A DNA stretch of 26,279 bases from a virus, in the UHGV virus genome UHGV-0017443; one strand, written 5' to 3'. How positions within the stretch are numbered: the stretch's first letter is position 1; the number at the start of each line of letters is the position of its first letter. Under the pieces are notes generated by a model, which did not search any database, was not told the origin of the DNA, and was given only the letters and a program-made list of their open reading frames with translations. Below are positions 8,353 to 12,603 of the stretch, one piece after another. Position numbers and translations under genes: made by a program.

Positions 8353-9030
8353 CAGATTTATATCCGTTCACATTCTTTCAGTTTTTACCCACCTCATCTT
8401 TAAGTTCTAAGCGCACTGACATGCGCATCATAAACTCGAGAGCACATAGGAATAGAGCCTGAGAAATATCGCCTTTGGCGACTTCTCTCGTGGTGATATT
8501 TCTATGTCAGCAGGCTCTAATATCTATGTGGTTCGCCTATGTTAAAACGTGAAGATGCATTGAGACTTTTTAATTACAATCCAGATACTGGAATTCTTAC
8601 ATGGAAGAATCCACCTCGGTCTTCTAGATTTATCTATGGCGCTGTTGTTGGCTATAAAACAAATGGATATCTGCAGGTAAAACTTTATGGAATGCGGCTA
8701 TATGTCCATAGAATTGCATGGCTGATGGTTTACAATGATTGGCCAGCCGATGTGATTGACCATATTAATGGTGATAGATCTGATAACCGGATAGCCAATC
8801 TTCGTGTTGTTACTAACACTCAAAACTCATGGAACAGCAAGATGAGGAAAAACAATTCATCTGGTGTGAAGGGGGTGACTTTTAATTCTGCTGCAAACAA
8901 GTGGGTTGGAAGAATTAGGGTCAATGGTAAAAGGATTCATGTAGGGTGTTTTGACGATATCGAGGAGGCGAGAAAGGCAATGGAAAATGCCAGGATAAAA
9001 TATCATGGTGAATTCTCCAGTATGGGATAG
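8353..9030 (+). mobile_element. About 0.68-kb insertion in the pR' leader carrying a free-standing HNH endonuclease gene
   Basis: Lambda-like sequence stops just after the promoter and resumes at GATGGGTTAATTCGCTCG (9031); both junctions carry an A-rich ATGG motif (AAGAATGG / GATAGATGG). Confidence 0.6.
8539..9030 (+). CDS. HNH homing endonuclease (HNH_3-type catalytic motif plus AP2-like DNA-binding domain)
   Basis: 163 aa; IDHINGDRSDNRIANLRVVTNTQN is an HNH motif; C-terminal GVKGVTFNSAANKWVGRIRVNGKRIHVGCFDDIEEARKAM resembles AP2 domains of phage homing endonucleases; AT-rich relative to its flanks. Confidence 0.8.
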   Translation: MLKREDALRLFNYNPDTGILTWKNPPRSSRFIYGAVVGYKTNGYLQVKLYGMRLYVHRIAWLMVYNDWPADVIDHINGDRSDNRIANLRVVTNTQNSWNSKMRKNNSSGVKGVTFNSAANKWVGRIRVNGKRIHVGCFDDIEEARKAMENARIKYHGEFSSMG

Positions 9031-9163
9031 ATGGGTTAATTCGCTCGTTGTGGTAGTGAGATAAAAAGAGGCGGCGCTTACTACCGATTCCGCCTAGTTG
9101 GTCACTTCGACGTATCGTCTGGAACTCCAACCATCGCAGGCTGAGAGGTCTGCAAAAATGCAA

Positions 9164-9222
9164 TCCCGAAACAGTTCGCAGGTAATAGTTAGAGCCTGCA
9201 CAACGGTTTCGGGATTTTTTAT
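9164..9222 (+). terminator. tR' (6S RNA) terminator of the late leader
   Basis: TCCCGAAAC...GTTTCGGGA stem followed by TTTTTTAT; the segment 9031..9222 matches the lambda 6S/tR' region as I recall it. Confidence 0.7.
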
Positions 9223-9224
9223 TT

Positions 9225-9299
9225 GGGTCAGTCGTATAAAGGTCATTACGGAAGGCTGTTAACCTTCTTATCGTGGTTCGAGTCCACGCTGTCCCGCCA
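9225..9299 (+). tRNA. tRNA-like gene, anticodon GTT (Asn), with one acceptor-stem mismatch
   Basis: Hand-folded cloverleaf: acceptor GGGTCAG/CTGTCCC (T-T mismatch at 4:69), D-arm with GG, anticodon stem GAAGG/CCTTC with loop CTGTTAA, T-arm CGTGG-TTCGAGT-CCACG, discriminator G, encoded CCA. Confidence 0.5.
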
Positions 9300-9304
9300 A
9301 ACAT

Positions 9305-9380
9305 GCTGGTTTAGCTCCAATGGTGGAGCAGTCGCCTTGTAAGCGAATGGGTAGCGGTTCAAGTCCGTTAACCAGCACCA
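9305..9380 (+). tRNA. tRNA gene, anticodon TGT (Thr)
   Basis: Perfect 7-bp acceptor stem GCTGGTT/AACCAGC, D-stem GCTC/GAGC, anticodon loop CTTGTAA, T-arm AGCGG-TTCAAGT-CCGTT, discriminator A, encoded CCA. Confidence 0.7.
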
Positions 9381-9622: not shown

Positions 9623-9946
9623 ATGAAGATGCCAGAAAAACATGACCTGTTAGCCGCCATTCTCGCGGCAAAGGAACAAGGCATCGGGGCAATCCTTGCG
9701 TTTGCAATGGCGTACCTTCGCGGCAGATATAATGGCGGTGCGTTTACAAAAACAGTAATCGACGCAACGATGTGCGCCATTATCGCCTGGTTCATTCGTG
9801 ACCTTCTCGACTTCGCCGGACTAAGTAGCAATCTCGCTTATATAACGAGCGTGTTTATCGGCTACATCGGCACTGACTCGATTGGTTCGCTTATCAAACG
9901 CTTCGCTGCTAAAAAAGCCGGAGTAGAAGATGGTGGAAATCAATAA
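9623..9946 (+). CDS. S: Holin S (class I, lambda-type, dual-start MKM motif)
   Basis: 107 aa, [41 protein letters not shown]..., matches lambda S as I recall it. Confidence 0.95.
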
Positions 9947-10406
9947 TCAACGTAAGGCGTTCCTCGATATGCTGGCGTGGTCAGAGGGAACTGATAACGG
10001 ACGGCAGAAAACCAGAAATCATGGTTATGACGTCATTGTAGGCGGAGAGCTATTTACTGATTACTCCGATCACCCTCGCAAACTTGTCACGCTAAACCCA
10101 AAACTCAAATCAACAGCAGCCGGACGTTACCAGCTTCTTTCCCGTTGGTGGGATGCCTACCGCAAGCAGCTTGGACTGAAAGACTTCTCTCCGAAAAGCC
10201 AGGACGCTGTGGCACTGCAGCAGATTAAGGAGCGTGGCGCTTTACCGATGATTGATCGCGGTGATATTCGTCAGGCAATTGACCGTTGCAGCAATATCTG
10301 GGCTTCACTGCCGGGCGCTGGTTATGGTCAGTTCGAGCATAAGGCTGACAGCCTGATTGCAAAATTCAAAGAAGCAGGCGGAACGGTCAGAGAGATTGAG
10401 GTATGA
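9930..10406 (+). CDS. R: Endolysin R (lytic transglycosylase, lambda-type)
   Basis: 158 aa, [49 protein letters not shown]..., matches lambda R as I recall it. Confidence 0.95.
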
Positions 10407-10870
10407 GCAGAGTAACCGCGATTATCTCCGCTCTGGTTATCTGCATCATCGTCTGCCTGTCATGGGCTGTTAATCATTACCGTGATAACGCCATTACCTA
10501 CAAAGAGCAGCGCGATAAAAAAGTCAGTGAGCTGAAGCTGGCGAACGCCACCATTACTGACATGCAACAGCGCCAGCGTGATGCTGATGCACTCGATGCT
10601 AAATACACGAAGGAGTTAGCTGATGCGAAAGCTGAAAATGATGCTCTTCGGCGCAAGCTTGATAATGGTGGCAGGGTGCTCGTCAAAGGAAAATGCCCTG
10701 TGCCATCCTCAGCCGAAACCTCCAGCGCCTCCGGCATGGGCAATGATGCCACCGTCGAACTCTCTCCAGTTGCTGGACGAAACGTTCTCGGTATCCGGGA
10801 CGGAATCATCAGCGACCAAACATCACTGAGAACGCTTCAGGAATACATAAACACGCAGTGCCTGAAATGA
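10403..10870 (+). CDS. Rz: Rz i-spanin (lambda-like N-terminal half, divergent C-terminal half)
   Basis: N-terminal TM and first about 80 aa nearly match lambda Rz; after ...AKAENDALR the sequence differs ([15 protein letters not shown]... versus lambda DDVAAGRRRLHIKAVC...). Confidence 0.85.
10623..10829 (+). CDS. Rz1: Rz1 o-spanin lipoprotein embedded in the +1 frame of Rz
   Basis: [19 protein letters not shown] with lipobox VAGC, then a Pro-rich stretch [11 protein letters not shown]; parallels lambda Rz1 (MLKLKMML...VVGC...PPPPPAW) but with a divergent C-terminus. Confidence 0.7.
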
Positions 10871-10878
10871 ACAATCAT

Positions 10879-10903
10879 AGCCTCGTAATAGCGAGGCTTT
10901 TTA
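10879..10903 (+). terminator. Rho-independent terminator after the lysis cassette
   Basis: AGCCTCG-taatag-CGAGGCT hairpin followed by TTTTT. Confidence 0.6.
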
Positions 10904-10920
10904 CTAACCGAGGGTAAATA

Positions 10921-11109
10921 ATGTCATCTCCAATCATGAAGTATTTCGCTTATCAACACCTCCCTGCGCATCTGCAGGAAGTAAGTAAGCCAATCGGTGA
11001 CCTTGCGACACTGATGGATGAATCACTGCCGGACAGTGCTGAAAAGTCAGCAGGTCTCCGCAAGCTGCTCGAAGCTAAAGATGCGCTGGTGCGAGCAAAG
11101 CTGGGGTAA
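10921..11109 (+). CDS. Hypothetical protein (62 aa)
   Basis: ORF with GAGGG SD; no family recognised by eye. Confidence 0.5.
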   Translation: MSSPIMKYFAYQHLPAHLQEVSKPIGDLATLMDESLPDSAEKSAGLRKLLEAKDALVRAKLG

Positions 11110-11397
11110 GTCATTACAAAGCCCATCTACGGGTGGGCTTGATAATGAAACCGGAGTTAATTTCTGGTCACTAATTAACGGCAGTACCGCGAAACAACCC
11201 AAGCCAGTAAGTGGGGAAATAACACTGGCAGCCACTGAAAGATGAACCTCCTGCCTTATGGCAAAAAAGATTCTTTGTGGTGGCGGACTGATGGAAAGAC
11301 ATCGGTTAGAATCAAGCAGTGGCTAGGGTAGCTCCCGAAAAGCGTAATCGTCACCGCCTGCCACTGATTCAATGACGAACAACTAGACGAGGTTGTT

Positions 11398-11673
11398 ATG
11401 GAAAAAATCTCTGGAAAAGAACTGCATTTTCTCAATCGAATTCTTCAATTTAAGCAGGAGAGAATTGCTGATTCTGACGTACAGGATGATGAGATTCTCA
11501 TGGTTGACTCATTGGTCCGTCATGGATATCTTGCTGTTGGCCTTTTCGACCGTGATAATAACGGCGGATATCATAGTTTAATGCAATACTACTCTCTTAC
11601 CGAACTTGGCGTTGCAGCTCATAAAGATGAATGGAAATGGAGAGGGAATCCAAATTCAAATAAAGGTCGCTAA
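11398..11673 (+). CDS. Hypothetical protein (91 aa)
   Basis: ORF with GAGGT SD 7 nt upstream; no family recognised. Confidence 0.5.
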   Translation: MEKISGKELHFLNRILQFKQERIADSDVQDDEILMVDSLVRHGYLAVGLFDRDNNGGYHSLMQYYSLTELGVAAHKDEWKWRGNPNSNKGR

Positions 11674-11792
11674 GGCGGCCTTTTTATTGCCATCACAAAA
11701 GCCATTCCCTACAGAGTGGCTTTGACAATGGCTTATACCCTACACGGGATAACTTAACTGATATCCCTTTTAACGGATAAACGGAGCCAACA

Positions 11793-12035
11793 ATGGCAGA
11801 GATTATTCCCATGACTGAAGAACAGAAATTCCAGTTAGAGATTTACAAACTGGTCATGAACCAGAACGCAGCCGCAGAAGAAGCATTTCAGTTCATTGGC
11901 ACTGACGAGCTGAAGCTTGAGCTATTCAAAATTCACTTCCAGTCAGGCGGCGCTAATTCAGATATCACGACCCGCACTATCGAAGCGGTGCGTAAATCGA
12001 AGGAAGCGTTAGACCTGTTCACCACCGGAGCATAA
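11793..12035 (+). CDS. Hypothetical protein (80 aa)
   Basis: ORF with GGAG SD; no family recognised. Confidence 0.5.
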   Translation: MAEIIPMTEEQKFQLEIYKLVMNQNAAAEEAFQFIGTDELKLELFKIHFQSGGANSDITTRTIEAVRKSKEALDLFTTGA

Positions 12036-12037
12036 AC

Positions 12038-12109
12038 ATGGCAACTCAAGGTTTCGACAACCCATCCAAATTCCGCGATGAATGGGATAAGCAAGCAGAA
12101 GGGAAATAA
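12038..12109 (+). CDS. Possible micro-ORF (23 aa) coupled to the small terminase gene
   Basis: ATG 2 nt after the previous stop with GGAG SD; [23 protein letters not shown]; ends 5 nt before the terminase start. Confidence 0.25.
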
Positions 12110-12114
12110 TCAAT

Positions 12115-12603
12115 ATGGCAGCACCAAAGGGCAACCGATTTTGGGAGGCCCGCAGTAGTCATGGGCGAAATCCTAAATTCGAATCGCCTGAGGCGCTGTG
12201 GGCTGCTTGTTGTGAATACTTTGAGTGGGCTGATGATAACCCGCTATGGGAGGGTAAGGTATTTTCATATCAGGGAGAAATAATTAAGGCTAATGTCCCT
12301 AAGATGCGAGCCATGACTATTTCAGGATTGTGTACCTTCCTTGATATCACCAGGCAAACATGGGGAACCTTCCGGTCAATGGAAGGTTTTTCTGACGTCA
12401 CATCACGAGCGGAAGACATCATCTATGACCAGAAATTCTCTGGCGCAGCCGCTGACCTTCTCAACGCTAACATCATCGCCCGTGATTTGGGCCTCAAAGA
12501 GCAGTCGCAAGTTGAAGACGTGACACCTGATAAGGGAGATCGCGATAAGCGACGCTCTCGTATCAAGGAGCTATTCAACCGTGGAACTGGACGCGATTCT
12601 TGA
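12115..12603 (+). CDS. Terminase small subunit (P22 gp3-like)
   Basis: 162 aa immediately upstream of and overlapping the large terminase; size and position as P22 gene 3. Confidence 0.75.

Follow-up and report, generated by a model that had tools for sequence, protein, structure and literature searches.

Two cargo slots, a backbone gene, and a structured leader RNA between the lysis and terminase genes of a P22-like late region

We consider it fairly probable that the interval between the lysis genes and the small terminase gene (positions 10871-12114) is a mosaic of independent units, with two swap-in cargo slots and a backbone gene, in which one cargo gene, ORF2, would encode a regulator and would itself be controlled by a leader RNA acting in cis. 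The interval belongs to a P22-like late region in the virus genome UHGV-0017443, and the 26,279-nt stretch of that genome analyzed here is referred to as the window. The original prediction, made from the window sequence, had treated four small ORFs in this interval as one cluster that could be a small defence, anti-defence, or toxin-antitoxin cassette.

Organization of the interval

The four predicted ORFs of 62, 91, 80, and 23 aa, each with a Shine-Dalgarno (SD) sequence, are all present on the + strand. By the ORF list and by reading of the sequence, ORF1 spans 10921-11109 (62 aa, SD GAGGG), ORF2 spans 11398-11673 (91 aa, SD GAGG), ORF3 spans 11793-12035 (80 aa, SD GGAG), and ORF4 spans 12038-12109 (23 aa, SD GGAG). 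All four start with ATG and have a purine-rich SD 5-8 nt upstream.

The right-hand limit of the region is the small terminase subunit gene of the gp3 type (12115-12603, + strand), which matches Pfam GP3_package at 8e-31 and PHROG 606 at 3.5e-71. On the left, the terminator expected 3′ of Rz/Rz1 was confirmed at 10879-10898 (+ strand), where an 8-bp GC-rich stem is followed by TTTTT and the fold has −13.1 kcal/mol with a z-score of −4.8. This terminator is the left boundary of variable slot A, which holds ORF1. The other slot, slot B, extends from 11309 to 11713 and holds the ORF2 module.

The two variable slots are separated and flanked by conserved noncoding blocks that open with long hairpins. 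Block A (11109-11308, no strand assigned) lies between slot A and slot B, and was found in 69 of 80 P22-like contigs carrying identical Orf80, as well as in about 2500 E. coli genomes. It opens with a long imperfect hairpin at 11111-11148 (arms 11111-11125 and 11134-11148), which has −25 kcal/mol, a z-score of −5.8, and no U-tract. A GC-rich hairpin had been noted here at about 11112-11134; it does exist, although it is larger than noted. The fold of block A as a whole is only mildly unusual (z about −2), and the block has no match in Rfam. A hidden gene in block A was considered and rejected, as its variable positions are distributed 23/20/26 without codon periodicity.

Block B reaches to 11792 and starts with a second long imperfect hairpin (11689-11732, no strand assigned) similar to that of block A. 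A perfect TTGACA hexamer, previously placed at about 11727-11732, is real but lies at 11722-11727, in the 3′ arm of this second hairpin, and is not a credible promoter. No acceptable −10 box is found 16-18 nt downstream, and a promoter scan called nothing at this hexamer.

Slot B is empty in about 37 of the 80 contigs, where 11308 is joined to 11714 via an 18-nt hairpin arm, and a comparable hairpin follows directly after position 11308 in these empty-slot relatives. Other contigs carry unrelated inserts at slot B. Alternative occupants of the slots include Gp49/Sf6 gp66, DUF551, Rha, KilA-N, HNH endonucleases, and P22 pid. Slot B is the published moron locus of P22 pid, located between orf25 and orf80, and in relatives this site is either without an insert or occupied by another one (Cenens et al. 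2013, PMC3573128). The orf25-orf80 region of P22 can be replaced with the phage still viable (PMC11016777).

The expectation that the junction between lysis and packaging genes is a cargo site was thus borne out, with ORF1 and ORF2 in two variable slots and with a match to the P22 pid locus. The locus gives a view at base-pair resolution of how one cargo site is built and reused: the slots lie between conserved blocks with hairpins, and the exchangeable ORF lies between a leader and a terminator that are shared.

Independent inheritance of the units

Co-occurrence was examined among the same 80 P22-like contigs, all of which have ORF3 as identical Orf80. ORF1 occurs in 2 of them, the leader upstream of ORF2 in 3, ORF2 in none, and ORF4 in 21. 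Because the four ORFs are inherited independently (2, 0, 80, and 21 of the 80 contigs), they are not one cassette, contrary to the original grouping. ORF3 is conserved backbone, and ORF1 and ORF2 are variable cargo.

It is very improbable that the four ORFs, or ORF1 and ORF2 together, constitute a small cargo cassette that serves in defence, anti-defence, or as a toxin-antitoxin pair. In favor of such a cassette, cargo is known to accumulate at this site (PMC3573128), anti-defence genes typically encode small proteins without annotation, only 2 nt lie between ORF3 and ORF4, and genes of phage Huey in the same two slots were labelled ‘anti-CRISPR protein’ by their depositors. However, the four ORFs are not co-inherited, the Huey label is automated and sits on a Gp49/gp66-family gene unrelated to ORF2, and ORF3 stays put beside differing downstream partners (orf59c, gp68, or ORF4). 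ORF1 and ORF2 are 290 nt apart with the strong hairpin and a conserved block between them, and a separate leader and terminator enclose ORF2. At E up to 1, PADLOC gave 0 matches for the four ORFs, and Pfam and NCBIfam showed no family of toxins or antitoxins.

Genes around the ORF2 module

The four ORFs had been described as not recognizable by eye. Searches of Pfam, PHROG, NCBIfam, and PADLOC gave no family for ORF1, ORF2, or ORF4 and named only ORF3, which is the orthologue of P22 Orf80 (DUF2560) and a backbone gene of P22-like phages. ORF3 matches Pfam PF10834 (DUF2560) at 1.1e-43 with 147.7 bits against a cut-off of 25, and is identical to P22 Orf80 at 79 of 80 residues. It is encoded by at least 574 viral contigs, and its place just upstream of the packaging genes is shared with P22, Sf6, Huey, and E. 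coli prophages. A search of PDB sequences with ORF3 returned nothing significant.

ORF1 is a real gene for a small three-helix protein, the cargo of slot A. Its homologues form at least 2201 clusters, nearly all of 62 aa, and a gene of this type follows the lysis genes in many lambdoid prophages, being widespread and conserved in length. ORF1 has no match in Pfam, NCBIfam, or PADLOC and nothing significant in a PDB sequence search. The frequency of ORF1 and its constant position after the lysis genes make its function worth attention.

ORF4 is a putative micro-ORF in a short variable spacer from orf80 to the small terminase gene, and its status as a gene is unsupported. Its segment is found in the above-mentioned 21 contigs and a few phages, where the single aligned relative is identical and thus offers no variation; one divergent copy of the segment has 82% identity. 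The only Pfam match of ORF4 is DUF2740 at 13.4 bits, below the cut-off of 27. In P22 and Sf6 the same position is taken by orf59c and gp68, respectively; ORF4 is similar to neither, and its origin as a remnant of one of them was rejected.

A mobile module with a predicted regulator

ORF2 is a real gene, the cargo of slot B, and its product is a rare stand-alone protein with a predicted winged-helix fold. Purifying selection is evident from comparison with an 86%-identical copy, in which pN/pS is 0.11 and 28 of 38 differences are at third codon positions. A winged helix-turn-helix fold is present in the predicted structure, which is one AF2 model built on a 7-sequence alignment, with pLDDT of 45 to 79 over five models. 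We infer that ORF2 encodes a small, probably dimeric, winged-helix DNA-binding regulator. Searches of Pfam, PHROG, and NCBIfam at E up to 1 gave no family for ORF2, MarR and PadR included, and the best match among PDB sequences had an E-value of 0.58 (cut-off 10), to unrelated proteins.

The module is about 400 bp long and consists of a −10-like box, a 50-nt RNA with a three-way junction, ORF2, and an intrinsic terminator. It is low in GC: ORF2 has 39.5% and the cassette 42.7%, compared with 49-50% in the window as a whole and in its lysis and terminase genes. The terminator (11662-11689, + strand) has a 9-bp GC-rich stem at 11662-11683 followed by UUUUUAUU, and the ORF2 stop codon lies inside its loop. 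A 91-nt stretch at this terminator folds with −34.5 kcal/mol and a z-score of −6.9. As for the upstream signal, there is only a −10-like TAGAAT with a weak −35, and the promoter scan called no full sigma-70 promoter here. The module shows features of a moron, namely insertion between sequences that are adjacent in relatives, its own terminator, and deviating GC.

Parts of this module are found elsewhere. Other E. coli prophages have the segment 11336-11690, which runs from the 3′ half of the leader through ORF2 to the terminator, between their Q antiterminator and holin genes. A different ORF is enclosed by this leader and terminator in E. coli ET826. The two elements therefore serve as shared ends between which ORFs are exchanged.

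An int-alpA-type leader RNA

The structured RNA upstream of ORF2 (11317-11366, + strand) is of the Rfam int-alpA type and forms a three-way junction. It is the most distinctive feature of the locus and was absent from the original prediction. P1 is formed by 11317-23 and 11360-66. P2 is formed by 11326-28 and 11334-36 with the loop UAGCU, and P3 by 11342-44 and 11355-57 with a variable loop at 11345-54. The 3′ end of the leader is 31 nt before the ORF2 ATG.

In a local search, the leader scored 37.8 bits against Rfam RF02996 (E 6.5e-06), a margin of only 2 bits over the gathering threshold of 35.8, while related copies scored 39-48 bits. With a covariance model of our own, from which the window sequence was left out, the leader scored 60.5 bits (E 3e-15) and was the sole match in the window. 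The covariation of 42 sequences, whose seed was picked for good P1/P3 pairing, was 0.947 compared with 0.185 after shuffling and 0.10-0.14 after sliding, and 96.8% of cells were paired. Two-sided changes were found at all 11 pairs of P1 and P3 and at one of the three P2 pairs. Some leaders have an alternative variant of P2. A thermodynamic fold of the single sequence did not recover P2 or P3 (z −1.2), so the structure is supported by comparison across sequences rather than by this fold.

Leaders of this type are widely spread, as the core motif was found in over 120 viral contigs and in over 120 genome contigs, which span many phyla. The core CUAGG[G/U]U[A/C]GCU[A/C]CCGAAA is near-invariant while the stems vary. 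An ORF of 60 aa or more, complete with SD and start codon, begins 19-48 nt downstream of 86% of the elements, compared with 9% of random positions. Strand specificity of the element is strict, and its spacing to the start codon is fixed.

The genes downstream of the leaders encode homing endonucleases, DUF1376 proteins, primases, and Bro/KilA/Rha proteins, without a common metabolic theme; about one-fifth are HNH or GIY-YIG homing endonucleases. The window copy is in the lysis-terminase interval rather than beside integrase and alpA genes, and viral copies precede many gene families. The integrase-alpA location is the founding context behind the name, not a structural criterion.

A −10-like hexamer, TAGAAT (11307-11312, + strand), spans the junction of block A and the cassette, 4 nt before P1. 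Across the family, 28 of 108 elements have a −10 box with at least 5/6 match 0-8 nt ahead of P1, compared with 3-7 of 108 at shifted control positions, which is a 4- to 9-fold enrichment. Additionally, five copies of the leader sit 3-5 nt after a tRNA gene, which is at most a hint of C4-like excision by RNase P and action in trans.

Two complements of one loop

The P3 loop has two complements downstream. Site 1 (UGACGA, 11373-11378, + strand) is complementary to loop positions 11348-53 and is a predicted pseudoknot partner. Site 2 (11386-11392, + strand) consists of GACGA fused to the ORF2 SD GAGG, and is complementary to the same loop (11348-52 with 11386-90), the pairing to the SD region being only 5 nt in the window. 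Site 2 is also located in the loop of a local hairpin (11378-84 with 11391-97). Such an SD-presenting hairpin was rejected as a general feature of the leaders, as the mean z-score is −0.41 and the feature is confined to one subfamily.

Both complementarities extend over the family. Of 97 elements, 77% have a distal complement that is 5 nt or longer, compared with 19% in loop-swap controls, and in the 76 copies from bacterial genomes these values are 75% and 18%. A complement at most 14 nt from the start codon is present in 77% of elements, compared with 30% in loop-swap controls. Both sites occur together in 59%, compared with 7% in controls and with a maximum of 15% over 200 permutations. This double complementarity is repeated in the bacterial-genome copies, at 51% compared with 7%.

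A mechanism can be proposed on these pairings. The leader would form the 5′ end of the ORF2 mRNA and act in cis. When the P3 loop pairs with site 1, the resulting pseudoknot would leave the SD free. Pairing with site 2, to which the SD is fused, would block ribosome binding. The choice between the two pairings would then set or switch ORF2 translation. The leader thus probably controls ORF2 translation in a manner resembling that of the C4/CI antisense RNAs of P1, P7, and P4.

The same RNA could instead be a riboswitch-like aptamer sensing a ligand or protein, or a 5′ stabilizer, in which site 1 is a fixed pseudoknot and site 2 reflects an anti-SD-like composition of the loop. We judge this the less likely course, though one of some weight. 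As with riboswitch aptamers, a near-invariant core is kept over many phyla and the stems vary, and a location at the 5′ terminus, behind a −10 box or a tRNA, would fit a stabilizer. P3 loops often contain CCUC-like anti-SD sequences, and an SD-proximal complement arises in 30-33% of loop-swap controls. Nevertheless, the above-mentioned 77% shows that the SD-proximal complement is specific to the element's own loop, the complements include non-SD bases (GACGA, UACGA, CCAG, and AUCAG), and the downstream genes share no metabolic theme that hints at a ligand.

It is very unlikely that the element acts mainly as DNA, as a homology ‘handle’ or a structured single-stranded DNA site for shuffling selfish genes and morons, with an RNA role being secondary. 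Breakpoints do occur in the element or at its edges, at 11336 (Q-holin copies), 11400 (ET826), and 11308/11309 (empty sites), and the above-mentioned share of homing endonucleases among the downstream genes is in line with such shuffling. On the other hand, strand specificity is strict and the start-codon distance is fixed, the loop changes in concert with the ribosome-binding region of the gene that follows, a −10 box is directly upstream, and G-U pairs are tolerated in the stems. These five features point to a function as RNA.

Translational control by the leader might be general. We tentatively propose, as a possibility short of even odds, that the int-alpA-type leader is a portable and programmable module for translational control, used by phages, satellites, and free-standing homing endonucleases in many phyla. 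Its core would bind a universal cellular factor or ligand, and its freely variable loop would address the ribosome-binding site of the next gene and possibly also identical leaders in trans. If so, the leader would give a general answer to how morons carry their own regulation. The orphan Rfam motif int-alpA gains a concrete and testable role as a 5′ leader with a variable loop matching the ribosome-binding region, and the E. coli/P22-like locus is a small, genetically tractable system for it.

Comparison with known systems

The closest locus is that of P22 pid, which occupies the same site in the late region, directly 5′ of the Orf80 block. The P22 insert encodes one 86-aa protein and ends in a Rho-independent terminator that belongs to it (Cenens et al. 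2013, PMC3573128). Likewise, the ORF2 module has a single small protein (91 aa, compared with 86 aa) and its own Rho-independent terminator. Unlike ORF2, which is co-oriented with the late operon, pid is directed against it, and the covariance model found no int-alpA-type leader in the P22 locus. Pid has no Pfam match, and no similarity between Pid and ORF2 was visible by eye.

The protein itself can be compared with small stand-alone winged-helix regulators, namely those of the MarR/PadR fold and STIV F93, with which ORF2 has 8-21% identity. Unlike MarR, ORF2 lacks the long N- and C-terminal dimerization helices.

The module as a whole resembles the morons of lambdoid phages, reportedly described by Juhala et al. 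in 2000, in being a single gene with its own expression signals and deviating composition, inserted between genes that are adjacent in relatives. It differs from them in that its upstream signal is mainly a conserved structured RNA, not a plain promoter.

Rfam RF02996 is recorded as a candidate sRNA with no function assigned, and is named after integrase-alpA spacers (Weinberg et al. 2017, PMC5737381). A literature search on int-alpA found only a listing in a table of sRNAs and nothing further on the RNA. The window leader is like this family in scoring above the gathering threshold, in having the same three-way junction with the junction sequences CUAG, CGAAAAG, and CCUG, and in its association with prophages and mobile elements. 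It is unlike the family's named context in that the window copy belongs to a late operon and precedes an unrelated gene by 31 nt. As far as visible, the fixed distance to an ORF, the dual complementarity including the SD, the upstream −10 box or tRNA, and the spread across phyla are outside the Rfam record.

Membership in the C4 RNAs (P1/P7 c4 and P4 CI; RF01695, clan CL00128) was ruled out, and the analogy was kept. C4 had no match in 10850-12150 at E up to 1, and, with the same library, P4 CI RNA scored 74.9 bits while P4 had no int-alpA match. The window element is about half the size (50 compared with 87 nt), and both of its targets are downstream. Both kinds of RNA have an outer stem around two hairpins, and both are found in leaders of regulatory operons that temperate phages and satellites carry.

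As reported by Citron and Schuster in 1990 and by Biere et al. in 1992, the second-hairpin loop of C4 is the specificity element and is complementary to two sites of its own leader transcript, one of which is over the ribosome-binding site of the first gene downstream. In the window leader, too, the loop of the second hairpin is the candidate specificity element, complementary to two sites of which one is at the ribosome-binding site of the downstream gene. This shared two-site complementarity bears on whether the leader works like C4, not on membership. If the leader does work in this manner, it would be an unrecognized cross-phylum counterpart of the C4/CI antisense systems, with an immunity-like specificity as in the c4 of P1 and P7.

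Mosaic interval between lysis and packaging genes

The window comes from a P22-like (Lederbergvirus-type) phage or prophage, of which it is the late region. An HNH/AP2 endonuclease ORF (8539-9030), tRNA-Asn and tRNA-Thr genes (9225-9380), and holin, endolysin and Rz/Rz1 genes (9623-10870) lie 5′ of the interval in question, and a gp3-type small terminase gene (12115-12603) lies 3′ of it, followed by large terminase and portal genes. Four plus-strand ORFs were found exactly where they had been predicted: ORF1 (10921-11109, 62 aa), ORF2 (11398-11673, 91 aa), ORF3 (11793-12035, 80 aa), and ORF4 (12038-12109, 23 aa). Each has its own Shine-Dalgarno (SD) sequence 5-8 nt before its start, and the terminator expected downstream of Rz/Rz1 is located at 10879-10898.

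DNA comparison reveals the interval to be mosaic. Among 80 viral contigs encoding an identical Orf80 (the P22 orthologue of ORF3), a non-coding block A (11109-11308) is present in 69 and the orf80 upstream region or block B, starting at 11689, in 76. ORF4 occurs in 21, the leader RNA preceding ORF2 in 3, ORF1 in 2, and ORF2 in 0 of the 80. In about 37 of them, 11308 is linked to 11714 via 18 nt completing a hairpin, so that slot B (11309-11713), where ORF2 resides in the window, is empty there. The four ORFs are independently inherited units, and the interval has two cargo slots.

Slot A, which spans from the Rz terminator to block A, is occupied by ORF1 in the window and by Sf6 gene 65, KilA-N or Rha genes elsewhere. 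Other occupants of slot B are Sf6 gp66/Gp49-family genes, DUF551, a small "MVSVNKD..." gene, HNH endonucleases, Rha, and, in P22, pid in reversed orientation. The junction is a cargo site as predicted, slot B being backed by Cenens et al. (PMC3573128), who called the site between orf25 and orf80 "a genuine moron locus", with another insert or none in related phages. A P22 derivative carrying a resistance cassette in place of orf25-orf80 still yields viable phage (PMC11016777). Incidentally, the depositors of phage Huey labelled its slot-A and slot-B genes (994-1494 and 1729-2109) 'anti-CRISPR protein', a label that nothing in the analysis spoke for or against. Going by position and length, the gene in slot B is the counterpart of Sf6 gene 66 (Phage_gp49_66 family).

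The original prediction that the ORFs could jointly form a defence, anti-defence or toxin-antitoxin cassette found no support. PADLOC and protein family searches gave no defence, toxin or antitoxin family match among the ORFs, which are inherited independently and set apart by strong RNA structures.

ORF3 belongs to DUF2560 (E 1e-43 in a family profile search) and is identical to P22 Orf80 at 79 of 80 residues. It is a P22-like backbone gene within a region dispensable in P22. ORF4, a putative gene, lacks homology to the same-position genes orf59c of P22 and gp68 of Sf6; the relative aligned with it is identical over this ORF, and the one divergent copy is at 82%. The 75-bp spacer bearing ORF4 (12036-12114) is a third small variable segment, as unrelated genes of 59-63 aa occupy its position in P22 and Sf6, and homology to P22 gene 3 starts only at 12109-12115.

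Conserved non-coding blocks and long hairpins

Block A shows no codon periodicity (substitutions of 23/20/26 by codon position) and no Rfam match. These 200 bp are conserved at 93-99% in the 69 P22-like contigs and in about one in two complete E. coli genomes, with several invariant stretches of ~10-17 nt (for example, 11199-11206, 11217-11225, and 11266-11277).

A GC-rich hairpin noticed earlier exists, but it is one part of an imperfect inverted repeat that extends further (11111-11148; -25 kcal/mol, z -5.8). Likewise, the noticed TTGACA hexamer is present at 11722-11727, but has no usable -10 box and sits in the 3′ arm of another hairpin (11689-11732). These two long imperfect hairpins look alike, with the pattern CAyyACAAA(A)GCC...GGCTT(T)GAyAATG. 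Each opens a conserved block 3′ of a variable slot, and relatives with an empty slot retain one such hairpin. In P22-like mosaics the pair may serve as 'boundary sequences' for recombination; alternatively, they may be RNA processing/stability elements.

ORF2 and its module

ORF2 differs from an 86%-identical copy by 27 synonymous and 11 non-synonymous changes, and this pN/pS of 0.11 indicates that it is translated and under purifying selection. Its GC content is 39.5%, against 49% in the surroundings. Homologues are few: 9 clusters in 5.8 billion proteins, 6 representatives in 1.84 billion by exhaustive profile search, and no copy in phage or plasmid records. From its predicted fold, we infer that ORF2 may be a small DNA-binding regulator.

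Among 5426 complete E. coli genomes, 6 carry ORF2, in prophages where the module takes the other cargo slot, between the Q antiterminator and holin genes. Homology of these copies to the window covers 11336-11690, namely the 3′ half of the upstream RNA element, ORF2, and its terminator, a hairpin followed by a U-run, with the stop codon of ORF2 in the hairpin loop. E. coli ET826 is homologous to the window until 11400 and again from 11665, with a different 80-aa ORF between. The leader and terminator are thus ends held in common, with ORFs exchanged between them.

In the window, the Q-holin slot (8539-9380), likewise a classic cargo site, holds the homing-endonuclease ORF (HNH_3+AP2) and both tRNA genes. 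This endonuclease resembles genes located 3′ of the leader RNA in other phages, and no leader copy is present at its ORF in the window.

A widespread leader RNA 5′ of ORF2

The sole non-tRNA Rfam family in the window is int-alpA (RF02996), matching at 11316-11378 with 37.8 bits, the gathering threshold being 35.8. A three-way junction (11317-11366) of stems P1, P2 and P3 is supported by an alignment of 42 sequences, in which 96.8% of cells are paired; seeds were picked for good P1/P3 pairing, which raises this percentage but does not affect pair-type diversity. Both-side changes in the stems number 220 cells versus 61 when shuffled, and the covariation score is 0.947 versus 0.185 for shuffled and 0.10-0.14 for slid partners. 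A covariance model from which the window sequence had been left out gives the window leader 60.5 bits (E 3e-15) and matches nothing else in the window. Membership in the C4/CI antisense RNA family was excluded, as models fail in both directions.

The ~85-nt element occurs at 77-89% identity in phages of Salmonella, Enterobacter, Klebsiella, Edwardsiella, Pantoea, Vibrio, Shewanella and Pseudomonas, and in 8 of 8 copies inspected it stops at a start codon, with a different gene each time. Its 18-nt core pattern has at least 120 loci in IMG/VR and at least 120 in species-representative genomes, the matches listed in the latter coming from Pseudomonadota, Desulfobacterota, Acidobacteriota, Planctomycetota, Nitrospirota, Bacillota, Spirochaetota, Bacteroidota, Chloroflexota and others. 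About half of the sampled copies reach the Rfam threshold. One Acidithiobacillus MAG contig (L282) has two core motifs 1.7 kb apart (1307 and 3033), only one of which parsed cleanly. Before the Q-holin ORF2 copies (3918-3968 in L004-L006), the P2 hairpin is GAC-CGGCCA-GUC instead of GGG-UAGCU-CCC, so the pattern-based census undercounts the family, and the 'invariant' core admits exceptions.

Among 112 non-redundant viral copies, 86% are followed by an SD, a start and an ORF 60 aa long or longer at 19-48 nt past P1 (median 35), compared with 9% at random positions. This fixed spacing argues that the element acts as a cis leader. Of 101 downstream genes scanned for families, 11 are DUF1376, ~20 HNH or GIY-YIG homing endonucleases, 8 HTH_36, and 6 DUF927 primases, the remainder including Bro-N, KilA-N, Rha and DUF551.

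A -10 box (at least 5/6 match) ends 0-8 nt 5′ of P1 in 28 of 108 copies, versus 3-7 of 108 at shifted positions, and in five copies on viral contigs (L016, L018, L035, L048 and L122) the 3′ end of a tRNA gene takes the place of the -10 box, 3-5 nt upstream. These sequence patterns suggest that the leader forms the 5′ end of its transcript, an end that tRNA processing could provide in the tRNA-adjacent copies. In the window, the -10-like TAGAAT (11307-11312) arises across the block A/cassette junction, and a promoter scan found no good -35 for it.

Proposed either/or pairing of the P3 loop

The P3 loop is freely variable, and its complement is found twice downstream, just past P1 (site 1) and fused to the SD (site 2). 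In the window, UCGUCA (11348-53) complements UGACGA (11373-78), and UCGUC complements GACGA (11386-90), which runs on into GAGG. When duplexes of at least 5 nt were counted and loops were swapped between elements as a control, both sites were complementary in 59% of 97 viral elements (control mean 7%, maximum 15%) and in 51% of an independent set of 76 bacterial-genome elements (control mean 7%, maximum 19%).

Because complementarity at the two sites exceeds these controls, we propose either/or pairing. The loop on site 1 would make a pseudoknot and leave the ribosome-binding site free, and the loop on site 2 would occlude it. In the window's subfamily, site 2 is within the loop of a small hairpin immediately 5′ of the AUG; this hairpin was dropped as a family-wide trait, being specific to that subfamily.

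Relation to known systems

The leader RNA is the part of the locus most worth following up. The moron site and int-alpA, as an orphan candidate RNA motif, are already known; what is new is ORF2, a small protein with a predicted winged-helix fold, carried by a moron in this established site. With its leader motif already known as a candidate, the locus taken together belongs to known kinds. The closest described logic would be the one used by the C4/CI antisense RNAs in P1, P7 and P4, which, like the leader, have two hairpins enclosed by an outer stem. In the C4/CI RNAs of P1/P4, the loop of the second hairpin has two pairing targets, one of them at a ribosome-binding site.
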